Source: Saccostrea cucullata | Taxonomy: Eukaryota | NCBI RefSeq assembly: GCF_032062105.1 | Contig: NW_026920084.1 | Span: 62,001-126,000 of the forward strand | Length of the DNA stretch: 64,000 nucleotides | Direction: 5' to 3' | Shown here: positions 42,251 through 50,561 of the stretch, one piece after another | Layout of the letters: each line of letters begins with the position of its first letter | How positions within the stretch are numbered: position 1 is the stretch's first letter | Made by a program: the position numbers and the translations under genes | Notes under the pieces: generated by a model | The model's database searches: none | Told to the model about the DNA's origin: nothing | The model's input: the letters and a program-made list of their open reading frames with translations, nothing else

Positions 42251-45200
42251 ATGGACGACGATCAACGAAGAGCATTTGAATTGGCAACTTCTGGACATAA
42301 CTTGATAATTACTGGACAAGCCGGGACAGGAAAAACTTTTCTTGTCAAACAAATTGTAAGGTATTTAAGACAACTGAAGAAAAATGTTGCTATTGTATGT
42401 TCTACCGGTATCGCCGCGACTCATTATGGTGAATTAAGGGCACAGACATTGCATAAATGGGCCGGGATAGAGGATGGCAGACACTTGAACGAAGAAATAA
42501 TACACTTAGTAAAGACTGATGAAAGGTTCAATGTTGCTAAGAAAAATATTGAAAATGCCGAAATACTAATTATTGATGAAATTTCCATGATTAGCGCAAA
42601 AATCCTACATCAAGTTCAGTTACTTTGTAAAAATGTCAGAAATTCAAAACTCATCTTTGGCAATATCCAGGTGATACTTGTGGGAGACTTTTATCAACTC
42701 CCACCTATTTCAAACGAACTTTTTGGAGATCTTGGAAATCATTGCTATAGATTACCTTGGTTTGAAAATTATTTCCCACACAAAATTAACTTAAATATTA
42801 TCCACAGACAGGAAGATCAGCTCTTGATTCAATGTATTAATGAACTTGAAATTGGAAATCTCTCAGAAGATTGTGTTGCATTTCTTCTTTCTCTTGATAG
42901 ACCAATACAAAATGAGAAATCATGTGTACACTTATTTGCTAGAAATTTAGATGTAGACTTGTATAATTACAACAAATTGCAAGCACTTCAAGGGGAGTTA
43001 AAGGTGTACAAAGCTGAGGATGAGGGCTCTCAACACTATCTCAACAAATTTCTGGCCCCTAAGAATCTAGGATTAAAACTTGGTTGTCCTGTTATGCTGA
43101 TTAAAAATTTAAGTGACACATTAGTGAATGGACTTTGTGGAACTGTGACAAATTTATGTAATGATTCTGTAGATGTGAAATTTATGGAAAATCATAGTAC
43201 ACCAATTACAGTGTCCATTTCAAGAGAAATTTTCACAATATTTGACCCTGTGGATAAAATTGTTTTGGCGAAAAGAGTACAAATGCCCTTAAAAGTAGGA
43301 TTTGCTATGACAATACACAAATCCCAGGGAATGACCTTGAAAAATTTAGTTATTGATTGCACAAATTGTATCCAGCCTGGGCAACTTGGAGTTGCCATAG
43401 GCAGAGCAGTATCTGTTCAGGGTTTGAAAGTAATAAACTTCCATAAAAATCTATGCAAAAAACATCCAGGTCATGTATACAATTTTTACGACAGTTTTTC
43501 AATTGGCATTGTGAAATGTGATCTAAGTTGTTGCAGGGATAATGTTGACATTAGTACTCTGACAGCAGATACTGGTCATAAATCTGAAGACACTGATGAT
43601 GCTATCGAGTCAAAAGTTTTGAATGAGGATTCAGAATTTTCTGATTCAGAGATTGAAGAATTAGAATTCATAGACAATATTCTTAGTGATCCTGGTCAAA
43701 ATGCACTTCCTGATCAGTTTTCACAATCAAAACTCATTTTGGACTCTGCAGTGCAGAAATATTCTGACACACCAGTAGAAACAATTATTTTCAGTTTCAG
43801 GGATGCAATCTGCAAAAGTTATAAATATTTTGATGACTGGTTTCATGAGCAATTTTCAATAATGGAAGACATAGGACTGAATACTTTTCCTGAAGGGGAA
43901 ATGTCTTTTTCTCAGAAGCATAGAAATGATTATTTTATTAGATTCAACAAGTATCTTAACTCAGATGATTATGAAAAAAGTGCAAAAACCTTGCTTAATT
44001 ATTATGAGCAAAATTCTGAAGGGCCAGCATTTCAGCTTTTAACTGCAGTTATGTTTCAGATAGAGAAAGAATTTTTTCTTCAGCTTTCTTCCTATCTTCA
44101 GTTATCTGCCCCTGAGCCTGTAAAAAAGCTAACTGTTCAGTCTGACCTGGAAATGGACTCTGCAGGAAAAGGGAAATTAAGGTACATAAGTGGATACATA
44201 TTAGCCAAATTGAAACATACTTTGTCAAAAAAAATCAGAAATATATTATTCACCAAAGGTAAAGAAACAGAGTTGTCAAGATTTCAATCACAAATGGAAA
44301 TTCTCAATTCATTGTGTACTTCATTTGATCATTTAAATGCTACAGCAGTAGAGCCGGAGACCCTACTTGAAGTTAAACACAGACAAAATGACAGAGAGAG
44401 TCTCACTAATGTGTCTGATTTGACCTTTAGTTTTTTCCAAAAACTTGAATTACTATGCCGTGAAAAACTTACTCATGATAAGCTAGTTGATGATAGAAAA
44501 TATTTATTCAGTTCTATTAAGGGAGAAATACTCGATAGTTCTTATATTTTTGACACATGGATTCAGTGTGTTGCGAAGTCGAGAAATCAATTGAATGAAA
44601 ATCAAACTGAAGATATTTCTGATCTTTTGTCTTCAATGGTCATGACCTGTGATAGTTACACAGAGATTTTCCAAGCAGTTGTCTCTTTATTCCTCAAAGT
44701 AAATTTAAGTCAGTTTCGAAGAGATTTCTTAACATTTTTGAAAAAAGAGAAGAGTGTCGCACTGCGTAAAAAGGTCATGAAAAGGTCAAAAACAGTTGTG
44801 AAAACTTTCAACATGAAATTTTTCTCAGAAGATGACTCTAGCAATAAAGAAGTTTCATTATTAAGGTTAAAATCTGAACTTTTACAAAATGAAAAATTCT
44901 TTACTGAACATTCATTTACCAAAAAGGATTTGATCTCAATATGTCAGCATTTTAATTTGAAAGCTACTATGAAGCAAAAGAAGGATGATATCATAAAAGT
45001 GCTTGTCGATGGAATTCTAGAAAATGTTCATGCATCCAATCAATCTGTACTTGACACTGAACAGGCAGGACCTAGTAACTCTCAACCTTCGTATGCTGAT
45101 CTGACTCCCGCTGGCTCTGTATCATCTGGACCTGGCCTTTCACCACAACCTAGAGAAAGAGGTAAGAGAACATCAAGCAAAGGAAAAGGTAAAGGGAAGG

Positions 45201-45295
45201 GCAAAGGAAAGAAAAGAAAAACATCTGCTGACAGAGATTTGAACATGACAGAGGAAGATCTTACTAGGTATGTCATCTGGTCTGAAATTTATTAA
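42251..45295 (+). CDS. Transposon-encoded PIF1-family (SF1B) DNA helicase, ~1014 aa, with a long C-terminal extension
   Basis: GQAGTGKT, STGIAA, TLHKWAGI, IIDEISM, FGNIQVILVGDFYQLPP, HRQ, PVMLIKNL..LVNG, QMPLKVGFAMTIHKSQGMTL, GQLGVAIGRA. The C-terminus has YISGYILAK, a SAP-like motif and a KGKGK NLS-like tract. First ATG at 42251. Confidence 0.92.
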   Translation: MDDDQRRAFELATSGHNLIITGQAGTGKTFLVKQIVRYLRQLKKNVAIVCSTGIAATHYGELRAQTLHKWAGIEDGRHLNEEIIHLVKTDERFNVAKKNIENAEILIIDEISMISAKILHQVQLLCKNVRNSKLIFGNIQVILVGDFYQLPPISNELFGDLGNHCYRLPWFENYFPHKINLNIIHRQEDQLLIQCINELEIGNLSEDCVAFLLSLDRPIQNEKSCVHLFARNLDVDLYNYNKLQALQGELKVYKAEDEGSQHYLNKFLAPKNLGLKLGCPVMLIKNLSDTLVNGLCGTVTNLCNDSVDVKFMENHSTPITVSISREIFTIFDPVDKIVLAKRVQMPLKVGFAMTIHKSQGMTLKNLVIDCTNCIQPGQLGVAIGRAVSVQGLKVINFHKNLCKKHPGHVYNFYDSFSIGIVKCDLSCCRDNVDISTLTADTGHKSEDTDDAIESKVLNEDSEFSDSEIEELEFIDNILSDPGQNALPDQFSQSKLILDSAVQKYSDTPVETIIFSFRDAICKSYKYFDDWFHEQFSIMEDIGLNTFPEGEMSFSQKHRNDYFIRFNKYLNSDDYEKSAKTLLNYYEQNSEGPAFQLLTAVMFQIEKEFFLQLSSYLQLSAPEPVKKLTVQSDLEMDSAGKGKLRYISGYILAKLKHTLSKKIRNILFTKGKETELSRFQSQMEILNSLCTSFDHLNATAVEPETLLEVKHRQNDRESLTNVSDLTFSFFQKLELLCREKLTHDKLVDDRKYLFSSIKGEILDSSYIFDTWIQCVAKSRNQLNENQTEDISDLLSSMVMTCDSYTEIFQAVVSLFLKVNLSQFRRDFLTFLKKEKSVALRKKVMKRSKTVVKTFNMKFFSEDDSSNKEVSLLRLKSELLQNEKFFTEHSFTKKDLISICQHFNLKATMKQKKDDIIKVLVDGILENVHASNQSVLDTEQAGPSNSQPSYADLTPAGSVSSGPGLSPQPRERGKRTSSKGKGKGKGKGKKRKTSADRDLNMTEEDLTRYVIWSEIY

Positions 45296-45878
45296 CTCCA
45301 AATTTAGGTGCAGAAAATATTTAAATGTTTCTAATGTTAATTTTAATGTTAATTCAGTGGATTTTCCATATGAAAATTCTGTTTTTTGTAATGTCATAAT
45401 TTTACAGAGAAAAACCATTGGAAAAAATATTTAACATTTTCTCAAGAATAGTAAATGCATGATTAGTATTTGTTGTGGAAGCATCTCTCTGGTAGTTTAT
45501 ATTCAAGTTTTCTCAAAATAGGGTGGGACCAACAGAAGTGTCAGATCAAAGTTGCACATAGGAGCTGGAGAGAAATCCTGATTAAGAATTAATAGCAAGA
45601 CCAGTGAGTCAGGTGAGGATTGTAGCCCATGGACCTCATGTTATAATTCATGTGAGAAATACTAGTACTGTATACACAAAAGAGGCCAAGTCTTCTGTGA
45701 CAGTATTACATTGATAGGTTGGCCATTATCTATATCAAAAATTAAAAAATATCTGCAAATTCATTACTTAGATAAGTTTCTATTTACACTGTATATGTTT
45801 CTATGATGTACCTAAAATTTGTCTATAAATACTTTTTATGATTGATTGTGAAATACATGTATAATAATGTACTTTATA

Positions 45879-48350
45879 TTATTTCAGAAACCTTTTAGTA
45901 TGCCATATCTTTCCTTCTGAGCTTCTTTTTGGATGTTGTTCTGGCAATTCAGCACCTCCCGAGGCTCCCCCAGTGTTTGATTTCCTCGATACAGAGGCGT
46001 GTCCTAGAATAACAGAATTCATTGTGTTGCAGTATCCTAGGTAGGTAGGATTGGTATTAGCCCCATTATGTAGTGTCCTCTGTTGACAAAAAACATTTTC
46101 TATAACATCACTGTTTGTTCTTGATGGAATAATGGAGGCATTTGATTTTTTCAGTTTGTAAAGACAGAGCTCCTCAAAACCAAGCACAGATGATATAATG
46201 TCTTGTCTAGTCTGGTGTGAAATTAAATGCTTTTCTTTATTTTTTATTGTTTTGTTGTTTTTTATGCTATTCTCCCACTGTACGAACCAATCCATTGCAT
46301 CATGATTTTCTTTCAAACGATCATCACTTACATCAGTGACAGGTCTAGTATCTCTGAAGTTTTTAATGAGGACACTAGTACATTTTAGGAGTTTAACTGT
46401 CACATCCAGTTGTGACCCTTCTGAACCAAGACTATCTTGATAAAGTTCCATGAGATGTAGCATATTCCCATCTAGTACATCCTCAGCTAAGTGATTCCTC
46501 ATTTTGGCCTCAGGTGTCATAAACAAGTGTTCTTGGGATAATTTATGGTGTACTGGAAATGCATGAGATGATATGTCCCATATATAAGCTTTCCTAAAAT
46601 GATTCCACTCAATGTACTTATCACCGAGCATTAAATGTCTCTTGCAGCTAGCATCAGTACCACTTTTCAATATGTTATTGCGAATTTTTTTTATCACATG
46701 GGAGATGTCCATTATGAAAAAAATTTGGGGGTTATCTAGACAATATATGTTTTTGAATGAGCAGGTTACTGGGTTCATTGTGCTAAATTCTGGTAGTAAA
46801 AGATTGAATAAGTCTCTGTTGGACTGAGCCCCATCGGTACTTATATACTGTATTTTAAAACCAAAACTTGATAACATATTCACGGATTCCCAAAGCAACA
46901 AGTAAAGTTCATGTCCTGAGGCTGTAGTTGAGGGAAAATGGGCAAATGGGAATCTGAACCCTGTAAACCCCAAAAACAGGAGTTGGAGGGCATGTGTTGC
47001 TAAAGGTAACTGTCTTTTACTTGACGAGATCTGGTTAAAAACAATGGACTCAGGAGTGCATTCTGAGAATCCAATTAATTGAATTTCACCATCTTTTTTC
47101 TTGAATTGTAGATCTGATTGAACAGACATTTCGTCAAATATTAGGCCGCCCTCTAACCCCTCTGGTGGAATTTTCTTCAGCTGGGCTTCATTCCTCATCC
47201 AATGAAGCACTTCTTTAGAGAATCCTGCCTCTTGATGAACTTCATTTTTAACTCTTTGTAGGAGTTTTTGAGAGGGAAGAACCAAAAACTTGCTATTTCT
47301 TAAATCTGTGTAACCACGAGGGCTTCTACACCACAAATTTAAACATAACCGAACTACATCCCTATTCCACCTTCTCCCATTGGGATGTCTATCAAGTGCT
47401 ATTTTTTGTGACTTTAAAAATGTTTTCATTTTGTTAGTACAATCAGGAAAAATTTTGCTCAACAGTTCAGACATGTCTTTATTGTCTGCTTCACACAATG
47501 TAACTGTATTATGCAAATCATCACTTTCCACACAGAGTTCACTTGGATTGCGTCTGCAATTATTTGTATTTTTGAAGAATGATTTTTTTTCAACGTTTGA
47601 TTCAGACTGTTCTTCATTTTTATCAGATTGATATTTAGTTGATCTCTGGAGTTTTTTACAAAAGGTACAGATAAATGACATATTTGTTGCAGCTTGAATT
47701 GGTAAAACATTTATACAGTTTTTTGAGCGGAAGCAAATACTGCTGAAATTTTCATCACCAACTTTGGACAAGTGCTCTTCAAAAAAGGTAGTTTTCTTTT
47801 TATTTTCCCCAATTTTCTCAGCCCCTTTGCAAAAAGAAAGGTGTCTTATAATTTGGAATATTGTGCTGAAACTGTAATGTTCATTTTGTTCATTGATGCC
47901 AAGACTTGCTGGTTTAATAGTTCTTCCACGAATATTCATATGCCAAATTTTATCACTTTTCAGAGAAATTTCAATCATTACTTTGTTATTGTTTATTATG
48001 TCACCAGTAAAATGACCTAATTTAATACAGTCTGCAGTCTTTGAAAGCAAAAAAAAATCTTCTGGGATAATTGAACTTATTTCACTGAAAGGAACATCAG
48101 ACAGTGGGGATTTTCTCCACGAGATTCCCAAATATCTCTTTGTCAATTTTGACCAGTCATCTTTTGAGCGAACTTGTATTATTGTGACATTTTCAAATAA
48201 CCTCTTTATTATATTTCCTACTGCAAGACCAGTCACTGTAGCCTTGAATTTTGTTATAATGTCCTGTAAATCAACGTATTCAGTGCCTGTGGAAGCTTCA
48301 AAATTTTCTAGTAACCAGATGTATAAAGAAGAAATATTTTTTTCACTCAT
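45879..48350 (-). CDS. P-element/THAP9-like DDE transposase, 823 aa
   Basis: RW...CLNLWCRSPRGYTDLR..LVLPS, LIFDEMSV (D), STDGAQSNR (D), MDISHVIKKIRN (D-x2-H), KMRNHLA (GTP-binding insert), SDVIENVFCQQR (E), NPT. Confidence 0.9.
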   Translation of the reverse strand: MSEKNISSLYIWLLENFEASTGTEYVDLQDIITKFKATVTGLAVGNIIKRLFENVTIIQVRSKDDWSKLTKRYLGISWRKSPLSDVPFSEISSIIPEDFFLLSKTADCIKLGHFTGDIINNNKVMIEISLKSDKIWHMNIRGRTIKPASLGINEQNEHYSFSTIFQIIRHLSFCKGAEKIGENKKKTTFFEEHLSKVGDENFSSICFRSKNCINVLPIQAATNMSFICTFCKKLQRSTKYQSDKNEEQSESNVEKKSFFKNTNNCRRNPSELCVESDDLHNTVTLCEADNKDMSELLSKIFPDCTNKMKTFLKSQKIALDRHPNGRRWNRDVVRLCLNLWCRSPRGYTDLRNSKFLVLPSQKLLQRVKNEVHQEAGFSKEVLHWMRNEAQLKKIPPEGLEGGLIFDEMSVQSDLQFKKKDGEIQLIGFSECTPESIVFNQISSSKRQLPLATHALQLLFLGFTGFRFPFAHFPSTTASGHELYLLLWESVNMLSSFGFKIQYISTDGAQSNRDLFNLLLPEFSTMNPVTCSFKNIYCLDNPQIFFIMDISHVIKKIRNNILKSGTDASCKRHLMLGDKYIEWNHFRKAYIWDISSHAFPVHHKLSQEHLFMTPEAKMRNHLAEDVLDGNMLHLMELYQDSLGSEGSQLDVTVKLLKCTSVLIKNFRDTRPVTDVSDDRLKENHDAMDWFVQWENSIKNNKTIKNKEKHLISHQTRQDIISSVLGFEELCLYKLKKSNASIIPSRTNSDVIENVFCQQRTLHNGANTNPTYLGYCNTMNSVILGHASVSRKSNTGGASGGAELPEQHPKRSSEGKIWHTKRFLK

Positions 48351-48415
48351 TTTGAATACCTTTGCTTAATTTCATCTCTTTCCTTATTTTTTGCGCTTTA
48401 AAACAACCGCCGAAA

Positions 48416-48960
48416 TATTTCCCGTACTTTTTTTCGCAAATTTCGGCTCTTTCCGTTGGTTCTATTACATTCGGAACTCTCCGAGTACAGAAGTGGAGTT
48501 ATCGTTCCTGTAGTAAATTACTACGAGGTGTCGTTTTTTCGTCACTTCCGTAATTTCTGCTTTGACATTTCTGGATTTTTGGCGTTTGACGGTTAATAAA
48601 GGGATAACAGAATAATGTTTGGTTGATAAAATGGCACGATTTACGACAAAAACCTCTACCGAATTAAGGCATGACTAGACATTTTGGTGACATGTAATAG
48701 GTATATGATATTTTAGGCCCGATATTCAAGAGGGGTCCGAATTAACAACCCGAAGTGACTTACCTTCTCTATTTTATAATACCCTGGTATGACTTTTTTC
48801 GTAAATCGTTAAATCTATGTTATTTTTTGGGTTTTTCATATGGAATACATTGTAAATAAGTACTAGAAACATAATTCTTGAGAAAAAAAGAAAAAAAAAT
48901 ATTTTGACCAGGGGTGTATATTGGGAGGGGGGGGGGGGGTCCTGTCCACAAGTACCTGTG
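48416..48960 (-). repeat. Right terminal inverted repeat (545 bp)
   Basis: Reverse complement of 41704-42247. Confidence 0.95.
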
Positions 48961-50561
48961 ACACACTTTAAATGCTTTACATCAAAGTCCAAATTCTACT
49001 TGCAGAGTTACGTAGCATCAGCGTTAATATGCAGTCTTTCATCATAAATATTTGATCTAGATATGCAAACAATTACATAATCCACGTAAATTGGATGGTC
49101 ACTTGAAGTGGGTTTTACGAGATGGAGTGATTGTTGAGAACTCTTCATATATTCCTTTCAAAAGACATCTCTCTTTGAATATTCTAACATTTCAAGTAAA
49201 TATTGTCAATATTTCATAAGTTGCTGGATTAATATTTGAAAAGATTTCTATAAGCCCTCTCATAACACTCTCAGCAGGTTGCCCCTTAATGATAAAAGTA
49301 AATTACCTCAGATCGAAATGAGAACCCTACGCTACCAATACATTTGTTGACATAAATGGCTTTCTCTTGTCAATAAGGATCCATTATTCTAATAGAAAAA
49401 AATTACTACGTTAGACTTTTTTCCCCCCAAGATTCATCATATATATAATTTTGGGATCGGTGTTAGGTCAGCTTTAATATAATTTTTCTTTGCCCTCCTC
49501 CGACTCAGGATTAATGTTTGGGGTCGGTAGTTTTTCCTTAGAAAACATCATTGTTGAAATTTTAAATGCATAAATATAGTTTCCAAAATGTTCATAAAAT
49601 TTTGACTCGAGCCATTTTAACCAGCCGGTTGGAGATAGCAACAGTAGCAAAACATTTCTTTAAAGGTGGTCTTACTAATGAAATTATGGTAACATCATAT
49701 TACGGTTTATCTACATATTTTGGAAGCAGAAATCCAAGCAGTTTGTATGACGTCCCTTAGAGAAAATTTTCAATCAAACTGAGAAGCCGGTTCAGGACTG
49801 CAAATCTAGACCTGCACTCGGTACTTCCGATGAGGGGTCATTTTCAATCGCTCCCACCATAGGCACTTAGGAGCTGGAAACCCCACCTCCTACTTTTCAT
49901 ACCCCGCTTGGAAAGGAGGAGGGTATAAAGTGATCTGGATGCCTATTATAGGGATCACTATTATAGTGACCCTCCCAAAAACATTATGACTTTATTATAC
50001 CATTATACCTTCGATTTACGTCGCTGCTTTTCTGTCGCTCATTTCGGGTATTATTGTATTTTATGCTTTTTTGTCGTGTTAGAAATGGTATCCGCTATTA
50101 TACCATACATGTATAATCTATTATAATAATCCTATTTCTAGGCAAGCGTATGTTCTTTGAAAGATATTTTCATGAACGATCTCCAACATTGACGTCGGAA
50201 TGAGAATTAAAAGCTGGTTTCGCACCGTTGAAAGGTTAATAAAAAAAAAAGTATACCAAGAATAGTTGTGAAATACATCCAATTTTATAGGATATCATTC
50301 TGGAAGCGGGAGAAAGCTAAAAATACAAGAAAAAATATCAAAATTGAGCGACAAAAAGAGCCGCGGTGTAAATCGAAGGTTTTTACAAGGTTTTGGATCT
50401 GTAGCTCTCTGCTTTATTTGTCCGAGTTTTCTCAAGCTACAGTTTTGCAGCTATAGTCCCCTTTCTCATCCTTGTCGCAAAGTAACTTAGTATACGAAGC
50501 ATAACAGGGACAGCCTGGGGAACCAAAGAAATAGGCTATCACGCTCCAATCGCATCATCTC

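Follow-up and report, generated by a model that had tools for sequence, protein, structure and literature searches.

The window analysed here, a stretch of 64,000 nucleotides from the oyster Saccostrea cucullata (RefSeq assembly GCF_032062105.1, contig NW_026920084.1, positions 62,001–126,000, forward strand), carries a 7,257-bp transposon (41704–48960) whose transposase, encoded by open reading frame (ORF) 1, begins with a domain that is an RFX-type winged helix in modelled fold and in sequence homology. Reviews define P transposases by a THAP domain and a one-chain, six-domain enzyme. This element belongs to the P superfamily by its catalytic core, its ends and its target-site duplication (TSD), and is without two of the textbook features, having neither THAP nor a C-terminal domain (CTD) in cis; from structural models, the CTD is predicted to be supplied in trans by a facing gene, ORF2, which also encodes a Pif1-family helicase.

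The RFX-like domain (48111–48350, minus strand) spans ORF1 residues 1–80 and starts at an ATG at 48350, with YIWLLEN from residue 10, KRYLGISW at residues 71–78 and a helix 2 shorter than in RFX. An earlier note, made without database searches, had quoted these N-terminal residues correctly and proposed their likeness to the RFX DNA-binding domain (DBD). Single-sequence searches of the window copy came back empty: the domain alone matched no Pfam family at E ≤10, residues 1–100 matched nothing in the PDB, and none of 722 candidates scored in a protein-database search with residues 1–250, so the resemblance is not visible from the window copy alone. Among 120 listed relatives of the core, PF02257 was present in 2 and THAP in none, and a rescan of 40 core relatives found RFX_DNA_binding in 8 at E ≤0.1 (2 above the curated cut-off), Pox_D5 in 2 and THAP in none. 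Seven more transposon ORFs, from 31 locus ORFs scanned, matched RFX_DNA_binding, one of them above the cut-off.

An AlphaFold2 model of residues 1–247, built from 87 sequences, reached a pLDDT of 92.8 and gives the domain the topology helix-strand-strand-helix-helix-strand-wing-strand. Foldseek placed RFX5 first (E 0.0033, TM 0.71 over the target), and of 48,161 chains compared by an exhaustive structural aligner, RFX5 came out on top (Z 10.4, root-mean-square deviation (rmsd) 2.9 over 76 residues), followed by RFX1 (Z 8.1, rmsd 2.7 over 68 residues), the next winged helix standing at Z 5.8 and the phage P4 origin-binding domain at Z 5.3. A profile of 32 transposase domains, made without host sequence input, matched RFX5 (3e-11), RFX1 (9.7e-9) and ARID2 (0.028) in the PDB, scored 99.2% over 77 columns in a profile-profile comparison with 10 canonical RFX domains, and picked up host RFX loci in the same genome. 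Among 1.84 billion proteins it gave 746 matches; in the best 150 of them, the canonical RFX wing motif was present in 56, the RWD/Cys4 domain of the transposase in 29 and neither in 65. The likeness first read from a few residues is borne out, and the predicted fold is the RFX-type winged helix rather than another.

Several observations weigh against a closer identification with RFX. D5-type primase-helicase domains also score with the transposase-only profile (5 of 53 scanned). The strict definition of the RFX DBD, given in the available part of PMC2873420, rests on 40% identity and nine contact residues; the oyster domain has 16% identity to RFX1 and RFX5 in the structural alignment, its wing residues 57–64 read IIQVRSKD instead of RRLGxRG, and N46 stands in place of the FGK lysine. 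Neither an X-box nor a half-site was found by motif scan in the terminal inverted repeat (TIR). With no RRLGxRG wing and no X-box in the TIR, the domain is RFX-like and not an RFX factor. A lone X-box match at 46996 lies in a coding region, is expected in 8% of shuffles and is not common to other families; we set it aside as chance or codon-driven. The fold, the helix-1 WL..N, the helix-3 G..I..LF, the terminal YxGI strand and an apparent intron in the Trp codon are shared with the group formed by the RFX DBD (PF02257; RFX1 1DP7, RFX5 8ZJR) and the RFX-like domain of ARID2. Besides identity, helix 2, wing and X-box, the lack of an RFX dimerisation domain separates the protein from RFX factors, and like ARID2 the domain falls below the definition in those passages of PMC2873420. 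Other small ORFs in the genome (L124, L126, L120) also match RFX_DNA_binding weakly (22 bits in L124) and are neither RFX factors nor P transposases.

The remainder of ORF1 (45879–48350, minus strand; intronless, 823 aa) identifies it as a P-superfamily transposase. Its helix-turn-helix (HTH), RNase H core and GBD-like insertion (45981–47375, minus strand) carry D406, D506, D548xxH551 and E751, a DDE RNase H core with D(2)H; Pfam places PF21787 at residues 374–518 (8e-15), and the transposase family profile matches the Drosophila P transposase 6p5a_A at 3.1e-12. PF21788, the model for the GBD-like insertion, is absent in the window copy and above cut-off in 4 of 40 relatives, and the insertion aligns with 6p5a 285–408. 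The HTH and the split RNase H with DDE and DxxH are as in Drosophila P and THAP9 (6P5A; PF21787–21789), and the GBD-like insertion may be so as well. The nearest named protein, at 98%, is from S. cucullata; other named relatives come from mussels, clams, a snail, a coral and a hemichordate. Residues 86–235 (47646–48095, minus strand) form an RWD/UBC-like beta domain, modelled as part of the longer ORF1 N-terminus and not folded alone, whose structural matches are middling (Z 5–6.5, with FANCL at Z 6.5). Its cysteines C174, C212, C228 and C231, each invariant in 71 of 71 aligned sequences, are likely to form a zinc site. The separate Cys/His region that the earlier note had placed after the winged helix is present, but as a four-Cys site that closes the beta domain. 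This Cys4 domain is common to RFX-type, THAP-bearing and DBD-less P clades, its pattern being matched by 74 of 120 sister-set proteins.

THAP itself is missing. The THAP profile matched neither the six-frame translation of the element with 1 kb on each side nor any RFX-bearing locus, and a scan of the element for the THAP C2CH motif found none, in line with the absence of a THAP signature stated in the earlier note; an upstream THAP exon, which would have changed the interpretation, was not found in the same searches, and the ATG is just 65 nt away from a TIR that ORF2 shares. In THAP-bearing relatives (THAP by Pfam in P0231 and P0394) THAP stands directly before the same RWD-like/Cys4 domain; P0223 matches the RWD profile at 7e-6, and P0231 itself scores just E 6. 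This common slot justifies speaking of a swap. RNA support for the 5' end of ORF1 is thin, since it consists of one contig of a likely RNA run that covers 48250–48434 unspliced, a weak observation, and since three raw oligo-dT RNA runs gave no reads on the RFX-like domain, most of their reads coming from non-autonomous end copies; the latter counts against the mechanism proposed below.

The earlier note had seen a DNA-binding domain swapped in this lineage; the swap stands, but it is not local, and sequence comparison has it marking a whole deep clade in marine invertebrates. In a quick tree of 61 catalytic cores (25 of 72 RFX-type, 14 of 72 DBD-less and 21 of 21 third-group proteins, plus L192), all 25 RFX-type cores fell on one side of a long branch with a Shimodaira–Hasegawa-like likelihood ratio support (SH-aLRT) of 100. 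Two points weigh against reading this as a simple replacement of THAP by RFX. The tree is quick and unrooted, with no Drosophila-type outgroup; L192, intended as outgroup, falls inside the THAP-bearing group. Further, the existence of a clade with neither THAP nor RFX makes loss followed by gain conceivable. That sister P clade, of about 100 proteins with intact ORFs and TIRs, has no recognisable N-terminal DBD, so an N-terminal DBD may be dispensable for end recognition, which weighs against the tethering role proposed below. With the tree not rooted, THAP as the ancestral state and RFX as the later one follow by parsimony from Drosophila P and THAP9, as described in the available part of PMC7776569. 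Members of the DBD-less clade (L127–L130 and most of P0122–P0220) have a basic, low-complexity N-terminus, are often named THAP9 in databases and are accompanied by a convergent CTD gene that lacks the helicase; in L128 the TIRs measure 31 bp and the TSD 7 bp.

The second departure from the textbook enzyme concerns the CTD. ORF1 stops 72 aa after the catalytic E751, without a CTD, and among proteins in which the catalytic E is recognisable, none of 107 in the RFX set and none of 92 in the sister set has a CTD motif behind it; the CTD is thus not in the same polypeptide. Facing ORF1 is the convergent ORF2 (42251–45295, plus strand), of 1014 aa unspliced or 1018 aa with the RNA-supported intron at 45268–45521, whose N-terminal ~440 aa are a Pif1-family helicase (Pfam PIF1 3.5e-26); the 25 Pfam families listed include helicase and P-loop families, and none falls on the C-terminal 531 aa. 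The gene is transcribed and spliced, with three GT..AG joints in RNA (45268–45521, 45613–45887 and 46041–46154, plus strand), and its 3' untranslated region is antisense to, and overlaps, the 3' end of the transposase. Within the C-terminal part, a helical domain (44144–44809, plus strand; model pLDDT 91.4) resembles the Drosophila P CTD (6p5a_B 617–734), which the exhaustive aligner ranked first of 48,161 chains (Z 10.8, rmsd 2.6, 118 of 118 residues; next 6.7). Against this assignment stand the lack of any match to the domain by Foldseek, Pfam or PDB sequence search, and the helical nature of the match, whose Z of 10.8 is below the aligner's caution line for helical bundles. We predict from the models that this domain supplies the transposase CTD in trans. 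One contig of run X1 contains an alternative GT..AG intron (44182–45064, plus strand) that takes out the greater part of the CTD-like domain with a change of frame, leaving a 656-aa helicase-only product.

The separation of the CTD from the transposase extends beyond RFX-type elements. A helicase-less CTD homologue is the convergent gene of the DBD-less clade, and in an intron-rich P family of the same genome a helicase-less ORF2 homologue lies opposite the core strand in 10 of 10 contigs, including L228, which also has a THAP exon. Because the CTD gene is separate in both DBD-less and THAP-exon families, the split would predate the RFX swap. Members of the intron-rich family (L227, L228 and L230; G000 contigs C3325, C12886 and C2632) start with a THAP exon and face a convergent gene that consists of the CTD only. 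The Pif1 fusion, in turn, goes with the RFX clade: among 39 RFX-bearing loci fetched from the oyster's own genome (copies not deduplicated), Pif1 was present in 33 and the CTD in 30. At 13 of 41 RFX-type loci with ORF2 matches (L135, L136, L139–L142, L146, L149, L161, L164, L233, L235 and L244), the transposase is flanked on either side by fragments of the Pif1-CTD gene, so that it is placed antisense within an ORF2 intron; 23 of the others are simply convergent and 5 have just an upstream ORF2 piece.

The element is bounded by a left TIR of 544 bp (41704–42247, plus strand), which starts CACAGG and stops 3 nt before the ORF2 ATG, and a right TIR of 545 bp (48416–48960, minus strand), giving ends of the form CACAGG...CCTGTG. 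The TSDs of the window copy (41695–41703 and 48961–48969, plus strand) are 9 bp long. Among 10 end pairs the TSD was 8 bp in 8 (two of which represent one insertion), absent in 1 and 9 bp in the window copy; five further elements have an 8-bp TSD, and L068 has none. These CA...TG termini with mainly 8-bp duplications are those of the P superfamily (7–8 bp), in which 8- and 9-bp TSDs occur within one family according to passages of PMC3698922. Five full copies in the genome match the window element at 99.3–99.8% identity, eight transposase N-termini are 98–100% identical, and the terminal 23-mer has 425 exact occurrences in the genome as compared with 0 for a control: the element is a young, recently multiplied, multi-copy cut-and-paste transposon. 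Short non-autonomous copies of 195–571 bp (L036, L039, L056, L059 and others among the 425 end matches in G000) were also observed, and many end matches depart from the autonomous TIR beyond ~30–55 bp. Two full-length copies (L073 and L074; G000 C18601) face each other head to head across about 500 bp, and since each has an 8-bp TSD of its own, they suggest local hopping.

From the anatomy, copy number, youth, folds, THAP absence and clade architecture described above, we infer the binding and timing steps of a mechanism that, taken as a whole, we consider probable. The two ATGs come close after the TIRs, at 3 and 65 nt, which makes it likely that one promoter sequence serves both genes, and the left and right TIRs likely hold mirror-image copies of it, one per gene. 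The two identical promoters would co-express ORF1 and ORF2; the winged helix would tether ORF1 to a site close to the ends that is not an X-box, taking over what THAP does in Drosophila P; the DDE core would cut and insert with 8-bp duplications; and the ORF2 CTD would take up the position that it has in the Drosophila transpososome, docked between RNase H and GBD, bringing the 5'-3' Pif1 helicase to the complex for end melting or donor-site gap repair. Removal of the CTD by splicing would turn transposition off. The available part of PMC7776569 describes THAP binding to sites inside the transposon ends, and the Drosophila CTD as lying between RNase H and GBD, in contact with both transposon and target DNA.

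It is also conceivable, if unlikely, that the RFX-like domain is a chromatin or target-DNA module, used for nucleosome or promoter targeting, and that the HTH and core recognise the ends. The wing motif diverges widely among families with nearly the same terminal 12–20 bp, the DBD-less sister clade exists, and the top-ranking structure bears the title of a nucleosome-bound RFX5 complex, all of which would fit such a role; the domain nevertheless sits exactly in the slot of THAP, which binds inside the ends (PMC7776569, in the same passages), and the flanks of 43 ends show a weak target preference only. Tethering at the transposon ends is thus the reading that we prefer.

As to its origin, the winged helix was likely captured from a host RFX gene, as an apparent intron position suggests. 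The helix-1 Trp codon reads AGG after an AT/pyrimidine-rich tract in 25 of 30 transposon loci and TGG in 5, including the window copy, where the codon for Trp12 (48315–48317) is uninterrupted; AGG after such a tract fits a splice acceptor that splits TGG as TG|G, as read from DNA and not from transcripts. The same Trp-codon junction occurs in 4 of 5 host RFX loci that cover helix 1, which favours capture from a host RFX gene over descent from an intronless viral D5 domain. Three observations weigh against capture from the host: the fifth host locus, L110, has its acceptor three codons earlier, just 5 of 25 loci yielded a fitting micro-exon upstream (control 1; clearest in L065), and an 80-column domain tree, with 5 of 65 branches starred, does not single out a donor. 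Two alternatives concern this step only. The first, which we regard as improbable, derives the winged helix from a viral or Polinton-type D5 primase-helicase, perhaps along with the Pif1-like helicase. D5-type proteins do occur in the best 150 of the 746 profile matches (the 5 of 53 scanned), Pox_D5 matches weakly in the 2 of 40 relatives mentioned above, there are weak fold matches to phage and virophage primases (best E 0.002–0.1), and Polinton-like elements carry superfamily 1 helicases (available part of PMC5499653). Against this origin, and in addition to the apparent intron, RFX5 and RFX1 outscore the phage P4 domain by Z values of 10.4 and 8.1 to 5.3, the winged helix of D5 is C-terminal, viral contigs held no relative (0 of 55 candidates), and Foldseek of the domain model against viral models gave no match at E ≤0.001.

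The second alternative reverses the direction and has a transposon domain of this kind give rise to the host RFX factors, just as P transposases gave rise to THAP factors. Transposon domains are far more diverse than RFX factors, and ascidian proteins with two RFX-like domains and RWD/Cys4 but no core suggest that domestication can occur; RFX factors, however, occur across opisthokonts and amoebozoans (available part of PMC10530576), and the named RFX-type transposases are just from molluscs, a coral and a hemichordate. This wide spread favours the host-to-transposon direction, and we hold the reverse to be very improbable. The proteins in question (P0274, P0294, P0344 and P0374; 889–1036 aa) combine the two domains with a C-terminal RWD/Cys4 and extended linkers of low complexity. 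Styela clava and Phallusia mammillata, both ascidians, are the named sources of two of these proteins, which are possibly a domesticated module. That a THAP exon is spliced upstream, making the winged helix an addition, is hardly credible: most relatives have an apparent upstream exon, and THAP has its own exon in another P family of the genome, but neither the element nor any RFX-bearing locus has a THAP signal, candidate upstream exons are of 6–36 codons and end in the split Trp, and the window copy has an in-frame ATG and an unbroken Trp codon.

Capture from a host RFX gene also enters a fuller account, which joins a two-subunit P transposase, host capture marked by the shared intron, delivery of a Pif1-fused CTD subunit to the transpososome, mirror-image TIR promoters, a switch by which splicing out the CTD would turn transposition off, and re-domestication in ascidians; in this combined form we advance it tentatively, as it falls a little short of probable.

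Comparison with known systems sets the element apart. As in Drosophila P, described in passages of PMC7776569, there are CA...TG ends, 8-bp TSDs and short non-autonomous copies. Unlike Drosophila P and THAP9, the oyster transposase has the winged helix and RWD-like/Cys4 domain in place of THAP and a leucine zipper; its CTD is encoded outside the transposase gene, in a convergent gene and in fusion with Pif1, the TIRs are symmetric and of 545 bp as opposed to 31 bp, and ORF1 is intronless. Galileo has very long TIRs, THAP and a single transposase gene. The 7-bp TSD of the DBD-less L128 is that of Galileo and 1360 (available part of PMC3698922), from which the window element differs by its two genes and by TSDs of 8 bp in most copies. 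Kolobok elements with accessory genes (Kol0/KolX, and the RecQ-carrying KolobokH and Kolobok-1_CCri) likewise have TIRs, a second gene or helicase and DxxH, as the available part of PMC9587614 describes; there Kolobok has TTAA TSDs, RR...YY ends, RecQ and the KolX ballast fold, in contrast to the variable 8-bp TSDs, CA...TG ends, Pif1, P-type core and P-CTD-like domain of the oyster element. Having neither the TTAA TSD nor RR...YY termini, the element is not a Kolobok. Helitron RepHel resembles ORF2 as a Pif1-family helicase encoded by a mobile element, and the available part of PMC8788227 presents Helitrons as the rolling-circle group with a Pif1 domain, with no mention of P elements in that part; a Helitron identity was rejected, there being no Rep/HUH domain among the ORF2 Pfam families listed and TSDs, TIRs and a DDE enzyme being present.

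Elsewhere in the window, 20086–22028, 36659–37279 and 39849–40574 contain exons of at least two tandem genes that, from their motifs, are probably heparan-sulfate 3-O-sulfotransferase-like; the element begins ~1.1 kb past the last exon. A diverged repeat array (30002–32725) has a ~147-bp sub-period and three 55–58 bp units with internal palindromes.

Domain traffic is usually described from transposon to host, as for THAP factors. P elements that carry RFX or Pif1, or that are split, were not described in the literature searched, outside which lay subscription papers, supplements and Repbase/Dfam, the last of which may list such families; PMC10027918, on transposon-derived factors in animals, does not mention RFX. 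The element represents a marine-invertebrate clade, large and active, whose transcription-factor domain was apparently acquired from the host, and assembly of the enzyme from two genes seems to occur in several P clades, including some that carry THAP. Such a natural split system could be used to ask what the CTD does and why a cut-and-paste element keeps a Pif1 helicase, whether for end melting or donor-gap repair, and how a captured DNA-binding module is re-specified. As a young, intact element it is a candidate gene-transfer tool for bivalves, and transposons of this kind will account for many of the 'Pif1' and 'RFX-domain' gene models in the genomes of molluscs and corals.

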